The notes beneath the pieces are model-generated. The model was not told the DNA's origin. It made no database searches and was given only the letters and a program-made list of their open reading frames with translations. The position numbers and the translations under genes are program-made. A stretch of DNA of 46,878 nucleotides from the IMG/VR virus record IMGVR_UViG_2529292735_000017; one strand, 5' to 3'. Below, in pieces: positions 4,205-22,265 of the stretch. Position 1 is the stretch's first letter. Each line of letters begins with the position of its first letter. This stretch comes from a virus (taxonomy: Duplodnaviria > Heunggongvirae > Uroviricota > Caudoviricetes).

Positions 4205-4396
4205 TTAAAGACCTGCCGGGATTTCGTTATTATCCTGGTGAATAACTTTATCGACCGGGTAACAGTTACCGGGAATTTTCTGTTCGGTTGCTGCAGTCAC
4301 ACACTCCTGCATTGTCCTGTGAACACTGACTGCAATATCAACTGGCTCTCCGGAAACAAGAAAAACTGTCAGAACAAGTGCAAATGCTGTATTCAT
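4205..4396 (-). CDS. ydfD: YdfD-like small protein (dicB operon)
   Basis: Internal Met gives 63-aa product MNTAFALVLTVFLVSGEPVDIAVSVHRTMQEC… matching my recollection of Qin YdfD; overlaps dicB stop. Confidence 0.7.
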   Translation of the reverse strand: MNTAFALVLTVFLVSGEPVDIAVSVHRTMQECVTAATEQKIPGNCYPVDKVIHQDNNEIPAGL

Positions 4397-4581
4397 TGCC
4401 AGCATCCTTTTTGTATCGGACGTAAACGGGCCAACATTGAAAGAATGCATATTTTATTTAATAGCTTCCGTTCGTGTTTTCTCTTGTTAATGGCATCTTC
4501 AGTAAATACAGGGTTACTGATAGTGACACCAATTTCAAAACAACCTTCAGACGTATTAACGTTTGGTAATAACGTTTCCAT
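4393..4581 (-). CDS. dicB: Cell division inhibitor DicB
   Basis: 62-aa product METLLPNVNTSEGCFEIGVTISNPVFTEDAINKRK… closely matches remembered K-12 DicB; correct spacing downstream of dicF. Confidence 0.8.
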   Translation of the reverse strand: METLLPNVNTSEGCFEIGVTISNPVFTEDAINKRKHERKLLNKICILSMLARLRPIQKGCWQ

Positions 4582-4755
4582 TATCGCGTCCTCAACAATG
4601 AATTTTGTGATGCGGTGCCTGGTGCCTCCAGGTGACGTTAACCAGTTAACAATTAACGCCGGATACAGAGAATCCACCCATAACACTGTTTTTGGTTTTA
4701 ACTGTTCCGCGTGCGCTCAGCCGCATTCACCGCATCACAAAATTCACTTTAAAAA

Positions 4756-4808
4756 GGGCGGCAGAGCAGTCACGGAGTAAAACTGATACCGCCAAACGTC
4801 ACCAGAAA
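4756..4808 (-). ncRNA. dicF: DicF small RNA (ftsZ-targeting)
   Basis: Minus-strand sequence TTTCTGGTGACGTTTGGCGGTATCAGTTTTACTCCGTGACTGCTCTGCCGCCC followed by a U-run matches my recollection of the 53-nt DicF; lies in the spacer upstream of dicB as in Qin. Confidence 0.75.
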
Positions 4809-5252
4809 ATTGATAACAGAGGGCGTTGCAGCGGGGTTGTCACTTAAGCGTATGGTCAACCTGACAACTCGGTGTCCTCAACGGGGAAGGAATAACCCCG
4901 CCATACTTACCGCCGCGCCATTTCGCGGGTTGCCACAACCGGAAGCGCACGGTCGAATTAAATTTAACGACACCGTACAGTGAGACGAACTTCGCCGTGC
5001 GCTTTCGTGTTGTATGCCTGCTTTTAACCACGTCAGGCGAGGTGGTATCCTTCTTATCCCGAATAACCAAGAAGGAAATCTATATGACTAAAGAAGAATT
5101 TATCTCTTATATTTTTGATAAAACGGTTGAAATGTATGCCGCTACTTACGGGTCCTGTAATCCTCTGAATAAACCAGAGGGGAAAGATGATTTCGACAAA
5201 ATTTACCGCTTCTTGGAGGACCGCTATATCAAAAGGTTAGAGGACGCAGGGA

Positions 5253-5630
5253 TCAAATCCCCAGTGAAGTCACCATTGTCCTGAGAACTTGCAGGACGTC
5301 ATGATCGTAACTTCCATCCAAACCGCGACGGCAAATTGCTTCTCGTATTACCGGAAGCAGTTCGCTGGAAATCTCGGTGCATATTTCACCTGATAATACG
5401 CCTGGCTCAAGTGAGAATATTGGTGAACTTACGGTCTTGGTCTCGACAGTTTCAGAGTCAGTGCCAACATTATAAAGCTCAACGAAAGCGGTCTTGATTT
5501 TCCGGGCCAGATCTTTTGCTGGCTCGCTTGCAATATCTTTCCCGATTTCTCGCAGCACAGAATGCAATGTATGAGCTGCTGTTTTCTGTACATCAGACGG
5601 TAAATCTTTAAATTCCATCGTCAGCCTCAT
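5253..5630 (-). CDS. YdfB/YdfC-like protein (dicB operon)
   Basis: 125-aa ORF at the position and combined length of ydfB+ydfC in Qin; true start may be the Met at 5618. Confidence 0.5.
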   Translation of the reverse strand: MRLTMEFKDLPSDVQKTAAHTLHSVLREIGKDIASEPAKDLARKIKTAFVELYNVGTDSETVETKTVSSPIFSLEPGVLSGEICTEISSELLPVIREAICRRGLDGSYDHDVLQVLRTMVTSLGI

Positions 5631-5782
5631 CAGTCAGTGTTTCTGGCTAACCAGCAACGCGCGCCAGATTCGGTTTTAAACGTTTTGCTTTTGGTATATG
5701 TCATCGCGGTGAACGTACCGTCCTGGTTGGGGAACACGCCACATACCAGAGATTCGCTGTTGCCAAGATCGATAGTATCCAT
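5630..5782 (-). CDS. ydfA: YdfA-like small protein
   Basis: Internal Met gives 50-aa MDTIDLGNSESLVCGVFPNQDGTFTAMTYTKSKTFKTESGARCWLARNTD, matching remembered YdfA; the longer ORF-track start is rejected. Confidence 0.7.
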   Translation of the reverse strand: MDTIDLGNSESLVCGVFPNQDGTFTAMTYTKSKTFKTESGARCWLARNTD

Positions 5783-5897
5783 GCTGACCTCATTTCCCCT
5801 TAACGCCGGGGTAGCGGAACTGTTTGCTGAGAACACCGTGCGGTGTCTTGATGGAAGTAATTTAGTTTTCTCATTATTTTTCGTCAAGGTTTTTTGA

Positions 5898-5917
5898 TGA
5901 GAAAACTCAAGTATTGG
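5898..5917. promoter_or_regulatory. Putative repressor operator copy in dicB-operon promoter region
   Basis: TGAGAAAACTCAAGTATTGG shares a 13-mer (TGAGAAAACTCAA) plus TATTGG with the site at 6433-6452; lies between dicA stop and ydfA start. Confidence 0.4.
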
Positions 5918-5974
5918 CGCAAGATAAAGCCAATACATTGAAATGTAAGGCTTTAAAATTTTGTGAAGGGATGA

Positions 5975-6382
5975 TTATTGATGCTTGTTGCGTTTGCGAG
6001 CCTCTAATAGCTCGGTGAACAGGCGATTAAAATTCTCAACGCGGGCGCGGAGTTCGCTGAGTTGTGCTTGTTGCTCTGATTTAGGAAGTGCGCGATACAA
6101 ACGCAGCATCTCTAACTCATCTTCCGATAAGTCTAAGGCACTATCGAGTGAAACAGGGGGAGCTGGTGTTTTGTCCTCGTCGCCAAACAGTATCCAGGTT
6201 GGTGAACATTGCAATACCTCGGCGAGGCGATGCAAATTTTGCCCGCGCGGGGCTGTATGGTCACTTTCCCATAATGAAATTGATGAGCCAGATACGCCAG
6301 CAGCTTTGCTTAAACCGTTTTGACTTAAGCCTACCTGCTTACGTCTTTCTCTAATGCGTTGACCTAAAGTTTTCTCGTTCAT
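5975..6382 (-). CDS. dicA: HTH XRE-family prophage repressor DicA (CI analogue)
   Basis: 135 aa from Met at 6382; …GQRIRERRKQVGLSQ…LQCSPTWILFGDEDK…SEQQAQLSELRARVENFNRLFTELLEARKR closely resembles remembered DicA. Confidence 0.85.
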   Translation of the reverse strand: MNEKTLGQRIRERRKQVGLSQNGLSKAAGVSGSSISLWESDHTAPRGQNLHRLAEVLQCSPTWILFGDEDKTPAPPVSLDSALDLSEDELEMLRLYRALPKSEQQAQLSELRARVENFNRLFTELLEARKRNKHQ

Positions 6383-6399
6383 ATTTAGATATCTTAATA

Positions 6400-6459
6400 A
6401 CCCTTGACTTGAGATTCCTTGAGTGATTAGCATTGAGAAAACTCAATATTGGAGGTGCG
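6400..6459. promoter_or_regulatory. Divergent dicA/dicC promoter-operator region
   Basis: 77-bp intergenic region with three TTGAG repeats and inverted repeat ATTGAG-aaaa-CTCAAT (6432-6447); GGAGG RBS at 6451-6455. Confidence 0.5.
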
Positions 6460-6687
6460 ATGTTTAAATCAGACGTAATTAATTTTTACGGTACGAAAGC
6501 CAAAGTAGCGAAAGCTGCTGGCGTTGACCCATCTGCTGTTTCTCAATGGCAAGAGCTGGTTCCTGAAGGTCGCGCGATGCGTCTACAGGAGGCATCTGGC
6601 GGCGAGCTTCTGTATGATCCCAAGGTTTATGACGAATATCGTAAGACGAAGCGGGCGGGGCGGTTGAACAATGAAAATCACTCCTGA
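6460..6687 (+). CDS. dicC: Cro-like regulator (DicC-like)
   Basis: 75 aa from ATG at 6460 with GGAGG RBS; small basic protein divergent from the repressor; …LVPEGRAMRLQEASGGELLYDPKVYDEYRK. Confidence 0.7.
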   Translation: MFKSDVINFYGTKAKVAKAAGVDPSAVSQWQELVPEGRAMRLQEASGGELLYDPKVYDEYRKTKRAGRLNNENHS

Positions 6688-7192
6688 ACAGGCTCGTGAG
6701 GCTCTGGATGCCTGGATATGTCGACCAGGAATGACACAGGAGCAGGCGACGATATTAATCACTGAAGCATTCTGGGCTTTGAAAGAGCGCCCGAACATCG
6801 ATGTTCAGCGTGTCACAGATGAAGGTGGCGCGGTTGATCAGCGAGCGCTTGGCGTTAATCGAGTGAAGATATTCGAACGCTGGAAGGCTATCGACACTAG
6901 GGATAAGCGTGAAAAGTTCACGGCGCTAGTGCCTGCAATTATGGAGGCTATCCGGATTAATGATTTCAGGTTGTATCGTGAAATTAGTGACGGAAAAAGC
7001 ATCACGTACATGATCGCCGGGTTAAACAAAGAATATGGCGATGTGGTGGAGTCCGGACTGCTTTTTGCTGATCCTGCCGTAGTGGATCGTGAAACTGACG
7101 AACTTATAGAAAAAGCAATTGCTTTCAAACTTGCGTATCGACAGCAATACCAACAAAAAGCTGGATGGAATTATGAGCCTTCTTTTTGCTGA
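6671..7192 (+). CDS. Hypothetical protein at the cII position (possibly YdaT-like)
   Basis: 173-aa ORF overlapping the cro-like gene end; family assignment is from memory only. Confidence 0.5.
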   Translation: MKITPEQAREALDAWICRPGMTQEQATILITEAFWALKERPNIDVQRVTDEGGAVDQRALGVNRVKIFERWKAIDTRDKREKFTALVPAIMEAIRINDFRLYREISDGKSITYMIAGLNKEYGDVVESGLLFADPAVVDRETDELIEKAIAFKLAYRQQYQQKAGWNYEPSFC

Positions 7193-8580: not shown

Positions 8581-9014
8581 TGTTAGGTATTTTAGACGTT
8601 ACTAGATTAAAAAGCATTAGTTCAGGAGTGAATTGACATTCTCATTTTTCATGGCACAGGGTAGATCTGGCGTGGTTGTCCGCTTTGTGCCAAGAGCGGA
8701 CGTTGGTATGCAAGAGCCCTCCAAAAGTTGATGGTTGGTTTGCAGGGGGGCTTAAAGAAACTGCACTTATCAAGTTGAAGTTCTGTATTCAGCGAAATCG
8801 TAGCACTCTGACGATAAGTAACTCCGGTACTCCGCTCTTCGATGAAGAACCAGAGTAATCCCCCCGAAAAACCAGCGCATCAAAATTGGATCTTCAGCGG
8901 TAGCTTATCGGCTATCGGAAGTACAGGTGTGGATTCGTGGTGAATTGCTTTGATAATAAACGATTAATACGGAAAAACGCATTAATCATTTATTAGCTTT
9001 TAGTAAACCACAAT

Positions 9015-10364
9015 TTATTCCGTTTTACATATCATAGTAGTCGATTGGAGAATATAGTTTCTGGGAATGTACTCTTCAAAGTGTTCGTCCTTTTTAAATA
9101 CATGAACTACATTTGGGAATAATTGATAGTCAACAGGGTGTATAGCGTTTGGATTATGGTACATGTACATGGCTGTACACCATGGTTCTTGATAGTTAGG
9201 GTCACTTACATCGGCTGAAAATGGATGTGGGGCTGCATCCTGATCAGTTTTAACACCACTGACGTACACTTTGAATCCACTCGCCTCTACACCTGCAAGA
9301 ATTCCCATCCGGTTAAACTTAGGTATGGTTGCTTGAGTAGTGAGTAAAACGGCAGAAACATAATTATTTTGTTCTGAGCCAAAAAAGTTCGACTTGATAC
9401 TTCTATTTTCATCTGTATGTCTTTCAATAGAAATGCCTGACTCAATATCAATCCCGTACAAATAGCTATGCAAGGCTTCGCTTGAGAAGGCCATGGACAT
9501 TCTTTTTGAATAATCCTGCATTGCTATGACAAATGGTTTGTTCTTTGTATGGTTGAGTTCCCAGTAATGAACTTTCTCTGGCTCAGGGCAATGCCGGACT
9601 TTTTTTAATAAACTTCTTGCAAACTTAAAAGGCATGACATTTAGAACATGTTTTCTTAATTCATCCATCTGTTCATCGTTAATGACTTTTCTTTCAAGAG
9701 GGGCTTCTGCTTCAGCAATGCTTACAGCCTCTACAGCAATTTCCACTCCAAATTTAGATAGCAGAAAATCTGGTTGATTGTATTCTCTATTCATTTCAAA
9801 GTCGAGTTCATAAAATACAGCGTTCAAATATAATTCAAATAACCTTGAATTAAATGCATCACTTTGAAAATCCCTTATAAATATTCCATCAGGATCTTTG
9901 AACCAGTATGCAAGTTCCTCAAGAACAATATATGCAGGGAAATGAAGAGGGTCTTCGAGGAGCATTTTTATATAAACATTCCTTTTTTTCTCTGGGACTT
10001 TACTCAAGAATAATGAAAAAGGTTTGGATGATTCATCGCCTTGCATGAATGTACCATTTTGGTGCTGCGCCAGCATCTTTGGTATGTCATCGTTCAAATT
10101 ATTAAGCAAGACATCCATTGAATCAAATGAAGCCAAGACGTTTATTGCTCTGAATTTTTTATCTAAATCCCGACCTAAGACTATTGCGTTAAAATCTTTA
10201 TCAATATTGCATATGATTATTGTGGATAACAATGTTATCCCATTCCCCTCATATTTAAACCAGCGTATCTCCTCAGAAAATGTCTTAAGGTAAGGTGAGC
10301 GACCGTAAAAATAAATATCAAATTGTTCTTTGCTGATCTCACTGAAGTGTAATCCTGCGTTCAT
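9015..10364 (-). CDS. Uncharacterised 449-aa protein (orphan moron; candidate defence/accessory gene)
   Basis: Long uninterrupted ORF on the strand opposite all flanking phage genes; visibly AT-rich; no Walker A, HExxH or other motif I can assign. Confidence 0.8.
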   Translation of the reverse strand: MNAGLHFSEISKEQFDIYFYGRSPYLKTFSEEIRWFKYEGNGITLLSTIIICNIDKDFNAIVLGRDLDKKFRAINVLASFDSMDVLLNNLNDDIPKMLAQHQNGTFMQGDESSKPFSLFLSKVPEKKRNVYIKMLLEDPLHFPAYIVLEELAYWFKDPDGIFIRDFQSDAFNSRLFELYLNAVFYELDFEMNREYNQPDFLLSKFGVEIAVEAVSIAEAEAPLERKVINDEQMDELRKHVLNVMPFKFARSLLKKVRHCPEPEKVHYWELNHTKNKPFVIAMQDYSKRMSMAFSSEALHSYLYGIDIESGISIERHTDENRSIKSNFFGSEQNNYVSAVLLTTQATIPKFNRMGILAGVEASGFKVYVSGVKTDQDAAPHPFSADVSDPNYQEPWCTAMYMYHNPNAIHPVDYQLFPNVVHVFKKDEHFEEYIPRNYILQSTTMICKTE

Positions 10365-10487
10365 ACCAATTCCTTTTCAATGAATAATTGGCCTTTAGGA
10401 GTGATTCCCTTTGTCTTTAATTCAGTTCTAACTAGTTCTTTAATCCAATAGCCTAAGCTCATCATGCAGTTGGATCATAAGACAACG

Positions 10488-10514
10488 CCCTATAGTGCTC
10501 GTGATACTATAGGG
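10488..10514. repeat. Perfect 9-bp inverted repeat (CCCTATAGT-n9-ACTATAGGG)
   Basis: Read directly; about 125 bp upstream of the 449-aa ORF start; no following T-run, so more likely an operator or RNA structure than a terminator. Confidence 0.6.
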
Positions 10515-11107
10515 CATCTGACCACACTGTTAACTGGAGTAACGACTATGGCAGGAATACAGCATAACCAAACTCACCCCAAACTTACATAGCGCTTTCT
10601 GGCCGTGAGCATAACAAGGTCCACTCCTCGCTCAAAGCGGACTAGAAGGTTAGCTTGTGTCGGACTTTGCGTATTAAATGACTAGTGGTTGAGCCCCATT
10701 TCCACAGAAAAAATCAGAGAAACTATACCCAATAGTTGTATTGAATCACTGACGAGACAGCCTCATATTCATCAGGACTGGTGTACGTCCAATACAGGAG
10801 GTTGTGGTGCTGGTTCTCAAATGTGCGCTGGCTATTACGGCTGTAATGGCGATTTATTGTCTTGCTATTGTTCTTATGGATCGCCTTTCTGACTGATTTC
10901 ACATTGGCGAGGTAACGGTAGTTAAGTAGAATGGCTGCGGGTGCTTGAGGCTATCTGCCTCGGGCATGAACACCAACGGCAGATAGAGAAAAGCCCCAGT
11001 TAACATTACGCGTCCTGCAAGACGCTTAACATTAATCTGAGGCCAATTTCATGCTAGACACATGTAGGTTAGCCTCTTACGTGCCGAAAGGCAAGGAGAA
11101 GCAGGCT

Positions 11108-11479: not shown

Positions 11480-11731
11480 ATGATGAACATCGAAGAACTG
11501 CGTAAAATTTTTTGTGAAGATGGCCTCTATGCGGTGTGCGTTGAAAATGGAAATCTTGTTAGTCATTACCGCATTATGTGTTTGCGAAAGAATGGGGCTG
11601 CGTTAATTAATTTTGTGGATGGTCGAGTGACAGACGGATTTATCTTGCGCGAAGGTGAGTTTGTCACTTCATTACAGGCACTGAAAGAGATCGGAATAAA
11701 AGCAGGCTTTTCAGCTTTTGCAGAAGAATAA
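11480..11731 (+). CDS. rem: Rem-like hypothetical protein
   Basis: 83-aa ORF; size and position next to hok and ydfU match Qin rem; identity from memory. Confidence 0.55.
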   Translation: MMNIEELRKIFCEDGLYAVCVENGNLVSHYRIMCLRKNGAALINFVDGRVTDGFILREGEFVTSLQALKEIGIKAGFSAFAEE

Positions 11732-22096: not shown

Positions 22097-22265
22097 TTTG
22101 ATTCTAATGCATTGATAATAAATGATAATCATCTTTATCTGTTTGTGTGAAATTTAGACCGTCGTATGTTGATTATTGCGATGTTTCATCTTATCTTTTA
22201 TACGTTTGCTCCATATAATTGACACTACTGTGTACCAGGACAGTCATAACAGACTAAAAGAGGAA

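Follow-up and report, generated by a model that had tools for sequence, protein, structure and literature searches.

The best-described relative of the locus analysed here is the dicA/dicC region of the Qin prophage of Escherichia coli K-12. As summarized in PMC10448788, Bejar et al. described operator-like repeats in its dicA-dicC and dicA-dicBp regions in 1986. Yun et al. (2012) later showed that K-12 DicA binds the operator Oc (TTGTTAGTCATAACTAACAA) in vivo, that a single base change abolishes this binding, and that from Oc DicA acts as a repressor of dicC and an activator of dicA (PMC3441716). The same study mapped the dicC start site, noted that the sequence shows no obvious dicA promoter, and reported that Om and Oa, the two other proposed sites, are not occupied by themselves (PMC3441716). 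Deletion of dicA derepresses K-12 dicBp 22-fold, and the K-12 protein Rem is an antirepressor that relieves DicA repression (PMC10448788). What the module controls is of wider interest: dicB and DicF stop cell division and alter phage susceptibility.

The c2 repressor of phage P22 provides a second point of reference. It is a 216-aa protein with a RecA-cleavable C-terminal domain, and the phage has three operators per promoter. These operators are 18 bp long and are contacted at positions 2–7 and 12–17, while positions 8–11 are uncontacted and read indirectly, an A-tract centre being bound best (PMC4267663).

Here we analyse a 46,878-nt stretch of viral DNA, hereafter called the window, in which a motif recurs on both sides of a repressor gene. 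This motif is very probably the operator of the prophage's DicA-type immunity repressor, through which two early promoters would be silenced. Our literature search found no paper containing the exact operator sequence, so that the sequence appears to be new and the architecture known. Judged from its sequence, the module adds a specificity class to the known DicA/DicC switch; the kind of system is not new.

Results

The window is an mEp460-like (Qin/DicA-type) lambdoid prophage that looks complete and matches a functional phage. The same immunity module occurs in 797 of 5,426 complete E. coli genomes (~15%) and in phage mEp460_ev081, a functional temperate phage carrying dicB, dicF, dicAC and rem (PMC10448788). 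The immunity region is 100% identical to that of a prophage adjoining rspB in E. coli FDAARGOS_497, and the window is 99.9% identical to this prophage on both sides of positions 8705–10618. These ~1.9 kb, lying between the DUF977 gene region and hokD/rem, have no counterpart in FDAARGOS_497 and are a mosaic replacement. Contigs with this E. coli-type immunity region also appear in two metagenome-assembled genomes (MAGs) that GTDB assigns to Bacillota and to Veillonella parvula (L008 and L009). Their repressors are 100% identical to that of the window and their regulatory flanks differ at only a few bases; they are almost certainly E. coli prophage DNA binned into the wrong MAGs (contamination).

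The repressor gene (5975–6382, minus strand) encodes a DicA-family protein of 135 aa with an N-terminal helix-turn-helix domain (Pfam HTH_3, E 2e-15). Across 135 aa it shares 56% identity with K-12 DicA, the blocks CSPTW..FGDEDK and ARV.NFN.LF being invariant, and it is 100% identical to the repressors of phages mEp460_ev081 and HannyBb, in which the gene order is the same. Residues 1–72 align without gaps to the DNA-binding N-terminal domain of P22 c2 (E 8e-16). At positions 32, 33, 37 and 40, which we take to be base-contacting in P22 c2 (N, V, Q and R there), the window repressor carries G, S, L and S. Pfam gave no match to Peptidase_S24 or any other domain in its C-terminal part. The HannyBb annotation starts this reading frame at an ATG at 6433, giving 152 aa. 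We rejected that start: homologues and P22 c2 all align from MNEKTLG, and it is further disfavoured because its ATG would sit within the dicC promoter and operator.

Divergently from dicA lies dicC (6460–6687, plus strand), which encodes a 75-aa P22 Cro-like regulator (Pfam P22_Cro, E 3e-16) and is followed by a YdaT-family gene (Pfam). The leftward operon (4393–5785, minus strand) comprises ydfA (5630–5785; Pfam DUF1391), a 125-aa ORF (5253–5630), DicF RNA (4756–4807; Rfam, 76.7 bits) and dicB (4393–4581; Pfam DicB). The 125-aa ORF, between ydfA and DicF, takes the place of K-12 ydfB/ydfC, has no Pfam match and is annotated as hypothetical in RefSeq. RefSeq annotation of an identical region agrees with these assignments; together with Pfam and Rfam it bears out, at the family level, the dicA, dicC and dicB-operon calls of a preliminary description of this DNA. 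Farther right, at 11480–11731 (plus strand), tblastn locates rem, with 100% identity to annotated Rem over 83 aa. A search for LexA boxes found none near the switch or rem; the only CTGT-N8-ACAG in the window, at 22228, is what chance predicts.

Two RNA features adjoin the regulatory DNA. Just after the dicA stop codon a hairpin (5925–5955, minus strand) folds with a minimum free energy of −14.2 kcal/mol (z −2.9). Its sequence is kept in E. coli relatives of the same immunity type, its U tail is weak, and it is separate from the operators. We tentatively regard it as a weak terminator or mRNA stabiliser dividing dicA from the dicB-operon promoter. The other feature is the ydfA leader (5786–5856, minus strand), between the leftward promoter and ydfA, which is conserved across heteroimmune types and genera (also in loci L001, L005, L007, L011, L012, L017, L018 and L020–L024). 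In its first short hairpin the arms change together (ACACCG/CGGUGU, AAUCAC/GUGAUU); there follow ACUCAG...AGUUCCGCUA or GUUCUGAC, and a second hairpin of the form CCCC/GGGG, CCCUG/CAGGG, GCC/GGC or GCCG-GAAAGA-CGGC. The position of the leader just past a PL-like promoter and its GAAAGA loops recall lambda nutL boxB. For this leader RNAalifold gave only 3 pairs, single-sequence folds were no better than shuffles, and Rfam returned no match.

The 13-mer TGAGAAAACTCAA occurs exactly at 5898–5910 and 6434–6446, both times on the plus strand. The preliminary description had reported this repeat, and both exact copies stand; the longer 20-mers that it gave for the two places differ, the left one reading on into ...CTCAAgTATTGG with an extra G and the right one, shifted by one base at its start (TTGAG...), into ...CTCAATATTGG from one position earlier. 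A third copy, TGAGAAAACTAAA (5861–5873, minus strand, 12 of 13 positions matching), sits inside the dicB-operon promoter and forms with the left copy a 17-nt inverted repeat whose arms are separated by 22 nt. The earlier count of two sites thus becomes three strong sites, the one at 5859–5876 having been overlooked.

These copies are confined to the switch. Allowing one mismatch, the 13-mer has only three matches on both strands of the 46,878 bp, all within 266 bp of non-coding DNA (0.57% of the window) flanking the repressor gene. First-order Markov simulation gave a mean of 0.08 such matches, and three were reached in 0 of 1000 runs. The inverted repeat ATTGAG-N4-CTCAAT, previously noted in the dicA-dicC region, is indeed present there and perfect (6432–6447). 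With up to two mismatches it matches only three times in the window (5860–5875, 6383–6398 and 6432–6447), again in the same two non-coding stretches. No further operator copy exists elsewhere in the 46.9-kb window at one mismatch or fewer, and operator-like matches with two to three mismatches (13760, 28778 and 40950) are within chance expectation. We also considered a fourth copy, GAGAAAACT, at 6368–6376 (minus strand) in dicA codons 3–5. It equals the operator's central 9-mer; we set it aside as it matches the operator at 10 of 14 positions, is coding, and has a different codon in Buttiauxella, and its recurrence within dicA is probably chance.

A consensus scan of 5200–6800 returned just two promoter-like matches, both defined solely by their fit to a sigma-70-like consensus. 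The dicBp or PL-like promoter (5859–5887, minus strand; TTGACG, 17-nt spacer, TAAATT; 9 of 12 consensus positions) faces ydfA, and the dicCp or PR-like promoter (6404–6433, plus strand; TTGACT, 18-nt spacer, TAGCAT; also 9 of 12) faces dicC. Every strong site overlaps or abuts one of them. The right operator (6431–6448, plus strand; C-ATTGAG-AAAA-CTCAAT-A) is a perfect dyad with its core at 6433–6446. It extends over the final 3 nt of the −10 hexamer TAGCAT and the expected dicC start point, and is the equivalent of K-12 Oc, lying at the same position as that experimentally bound site (PMC3441716).

Two putative operators lie on the left. The proximal one (5859–5876, minus strand; T-AATGAG-AAAA-CTAAAT-T; 12 of 13 to the 13-mer) covers the −10 hexamer TAAATT of the ydfA-dicF-dicB promoter entirely, along with the 12 spacer nucleotides before it; it is the best placed of the sites, and the most likely, to repress the dicB operon. 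The distal one (5895–5912, plus strand; T-GATGAG-AAAA-CTCAAG-T), which holds the exact left 13-mer, lies 8–25 bp upstream of the −35 hexamer, its centre 36 bp from that of the proximal site. Its half-sites, GATGAG and CTTGAG, are weaker, and any role assigned to it is a guess. The AAAA centre is kept in all three strong sites.

The left promoter thus has two clear operators, and the right promoter one strong operator plus two weak candidates. The Oa-like candidate (6382–6399, plus strand; T-ATTTAG-ATAT-CTTAAT-A; 10 of 12) adjoins the dicA start codon and is invariant in same-type relatives. The Om-like candidate (6407–6424, plus strand; A-CTTGAG-ATTC-CTTGAG-T; half-sites matching 5 of 6 and 3 of 6, 8 of 12 in total) contains two of the three direct TTGAG repeats described earlier. 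All three repeats are present, starting at 6409, 6419 and 6433, but the first two become CTGAG and TTGCG in Buttiauxella. We assign both candidates with low confidence, the first as a weak Oa-like operator and the second as an Om-like region that is at best a weak half-site. Both may be meaningless, because in K-12 neither Om nor Oa is bound by itself (PMC3441716).

The Oa-like candidate overlaps a −10-like hexamer, TAAGAT (6391–6396, minus strand), the probable dicA promoter. TAAGAT ends 9 nt ahead of the dicA ATG (6382), with neither a Shine-Dalgarno sequence nor a good −35 hexamer, and other immunity types have TAGCAT or TAGAAT equally far from the ATG. This layout suggests that dicA mRNA is leaderless and activator-dependent, resembling lambda cI transcribed from PRM, and the position of the Oa-like site over TAAGAT suggests autoregulation of dicA there. 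The TATTGG that follows the 13-mer, which the preliminary description had taken into the site, does not belong to it. Bases 3' of the core vary among relatives at both sites (AAGTAT, AACATT, AATATT and AGTGTT; AATATT, AAGCCT, AACTTT and AGGTTT), and at the right site TATTGG runs into the dicC Shine-Dalgarno sequence (GGAGG).

We aligned the two regulatory stretches of six sequences that carry this repressor type: E. coli prophages in different contexts (one Rac-like), HannyBb, a MAG contig and Buttiauxella gaviniae, which has a repressor 74% identical to that of the window. Not one of 37 core positions varied, against 85 of 188 positions in the surroundings (Fisher p 3e-9), and the operator cores of a seventh same-type variant, from an O45:H2 strain, agree. 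The right-site core is invariant in all seven variants including Buttiauxella, and the proximal left site in all same-type relatives. Since the latter overlaps the −10 hexamer, its invariance could be partly due to promoter function. At the distal left site the core is invariant and both flanks vary.

Other immunity types offer a further view. With the conserved flanks as a guide and a profile run against GTDB genomes, we found DicA homologues of many specificities in Escherichia, Citrobacter, Enterobacter, Superficieibacter, Rahnella, Symbiopectobacterium and others. For each locus an unsupervised search compared the divergent region with the sequence following dicA and picked its best-matching 14-mer. 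In nearly every locus the dicA start codon was ~50 nt from this right site; two sites following dicA were picked as well, at a distance of 34–36 bp wherever they shared a strand; most other immunity types have such a second type-specific left site 34–36 bp from the first. The sites themselves are specific to the type: K-12, for example, has TTGTTAGTTATGACTAACAA, a further E. coli type TGTTAGAAAAGTCTAACA, an O157:H7 prophage CTTAGGAAAATCTAAG and E. whittamii TAAC-N4-GTTA.

Left and right sites change together. Across 14 representative loci, the right site matched its own left sites at a mean of 23.1 of 28 positions versus 20.2 for foreign left sites, a self-match reached in 0 of 20,000 permutations of the pairing. 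Ties between self and non-self occurred only between related types, the window tying with Buttiauxella. The repressor's recognition helix tracks the half-site, ISLWES going with TTGAG-containing half-sites and ISQWER with TTAG. DicC likewise varies in step with immunity type in its N-terminal part, its C-terminal part being conserved. The match between K-12 and the window is limited to the flanks of the immunity module (32% coverage), the mosaicism typical of immunity regions.

Discussion

We propose that the cro-side promoter and the division-inhibitor promoter share an operator that a single repressor recognises, as the preliminary description had suggested from two sites. Promoter overlap, invariant cores, co-variation and the K-12 Qin precedent (PMC3441716, PMC10448788) all support this reading, and conservation and co-variation argue for selection on the sites.

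Other explanations deserve weighing. The Cro-like DicC might be the main or sole protein at these sites; its N-terminal helix-turn-helix part also changes with immunity type, and its K-12 and O157 counterparts affect dicA and dicB expression (PMC10448788). Yet the equivalent K-12 site is the one that DicA occupies in vivo and loses on a single base change (PMC3441716), and the 18-bp geometry suits the repressor's P22 c2-like domain (PMC4267663). In lambdoid switches, moreover, both proteins share operators, so DicC binding would be more a complement than a rival, and as an exclusive account it is very improbable. Less probable again is that the dyads are binding or bending sites of host nucleoid proteins (H-NS/Cnu, Fis, IHF) or elements of promoter architecture. 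Their central AAAA tracts and AT-rich surroundings would fit such a role, and Cnu/H-NS influences the K-12 dicA region (PMC3441716); host-factor sites, however, would not be expected to change in step with the repressor helix-turn-helix across immunity types, and the invariant bases are GC-containing half-sites, not the A-tract alone.

A similarly slight probability attaches to a functionless repeat, arisen by chance or recombination, whose left copy would belong to a dicA terminator made of the hairpin GTATTGGC/GCCAATAC and a T-rich tail. The left copy does adjoin this 8-bp inverted repeat (5911–5936) and reads TTGAGTTTTCTCA on the dicA strand, which would make the operator a U-tail. We rejected the terminator, however, as the hairpin is absent from the minimum-energy fold, and relatives keep the 13-mer but not the hairpin's left arm. 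The simulations that never produced three copies, together with conservation and co-variation, favour selection over accident. Even taken jointly, these three explanations are improbable, and we retain the DicA-type operator as the preferred reading.

In the mechanism that we envisage, a dimer of the 135-aa repressor would bind the 18-bp dyads through its P22 c2-like helix-turn-helix domain, reading ATTGAG-type half-sites at dyad positions 2–7 and 12–17 around four A:T pairs that are probably uncontacted. At 6431–6448 it would block RNA polymerase at the −10 hexamer and start of the dicC-ydaT-replication operon and, by analogy with K-12, stimulate the weak dicA promoter with its probably leaderless transcript. 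At 5859–5876 it would block the spacer and −10 hexamer of the ydfA-dicF-dicB(-exo-xis-int) operon, and the site at 5895–5912, 36 bp off, would probably aid occupancy via cooperativity. The Cro-like DicC probably binds the same sites and flips the switch. Because the repressor is without a self-cleavage domain, induction would probably proceed through the Rem antirepressor and not through RecA; by analogy with K-12, Rem likely acts on this repressor.

Two broader ideas follow the shared layout, a scaffold of one cro-promoter site and two left sites 34–36 bp apart, ~535 bp away across the repressor gene. On this one fixed scaffold there may be at least 10 DicA-type specificity classes among the 14 loci sampled. 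More speculatively, the repressor's short conserved C-terminal domain could join left and right dimers into a compact DNA loop enclosing dicA. We consider such a loop unlikely; if real, it would be a miniature of the lambda OL-OR loop and would explain both the weak Om and Oa sites that are unbound alone and the apparently redundant upstream site of the left promoter.

The picture of how such switches work stays unchanged. What the operator sequence would add is a way to predict cross-repression among DicA-type prophages in multi-prophage strains such as STEC, and an aid to the design of reporter and derepression experiments. The natural helix/half-site pairs could then serve as a table of specificities for P22 c2-like repressors, and the paired variants ISLWES-TTGAG and ISQWER-TTAG would, if the pairing holds, be a usable recognition code for these domains.

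Comparison with K-12 Qin places the locus most closely. Both have a ydfA-dicF-dicB operon, then dicA, then a divergent dicC, with homologous repressor and Cro-like protein, and both lack a RecA-cleavage domain in the repressor and encode Rem in the same prophage. The K-12 promoters lie at the same positions (dicBp, TTGACC-17-TAATCT; dicCp, TTGACT-17-TATCTT), and K-12 has its own dyads at the same three places: the −10 and start of dicCp, the spacer and −10 of dicBp, where AGATTAGCCATGACTAACAT takes the place of the window's proximal left site, and ~35 bp upstream. The two differ in the operator (ATTGAG-AAAA-CTCAAT in the window, TTGTTAGT-CATA-ACTAACAA in K-12) and in the recognition helix (SGSSISLWESD versus SHVSVSQWERG), and the window prophage looks complete whereas K-12 Qin is cryptic. 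A search for the K-12 Oc-type operator with up to three mismatches found none in the window's immunity region, its single match in the window (14655) being at chance level. Because operator and recognition helix differ and the immunity region holds no K-12-type operator, the two are presumably heteroimmune, different specificity classes of one family.

The kinship with P22 lies in DNA recognition. ATTGAG-AAAA-CTCAAT has the layout of a P22 c2 operator and the left sites have the same spacing; the repressor's N-terminal domain is homologous to that of c2, the second regulator matches P22_Cro, and the P22 half-site, which we take to be ATTTAAG, resembles the window's ATTGAG and ATTTAG. Unlike c2, the window repressor has 135 aa and a short, unrelated C-terminal part; against the three operators at each P22 promoter, the window shows two clear ones on the left and, on the right, one that is strong and two that are doubtful. 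With lambda cI/Cro the window shares its logic: the repressor, encoded between two divergent early promoters, would silence both via repeated dyads, and its own weak promoter would give a probably leaderless transcript needing activation (for the window, as read from TAAGAT). It differs from lambda in helix-turn-helix family, operator sequences and site numbers, and in the likely route of induction, which would be antirepressor-based here and is by self-cleavage in lambda.
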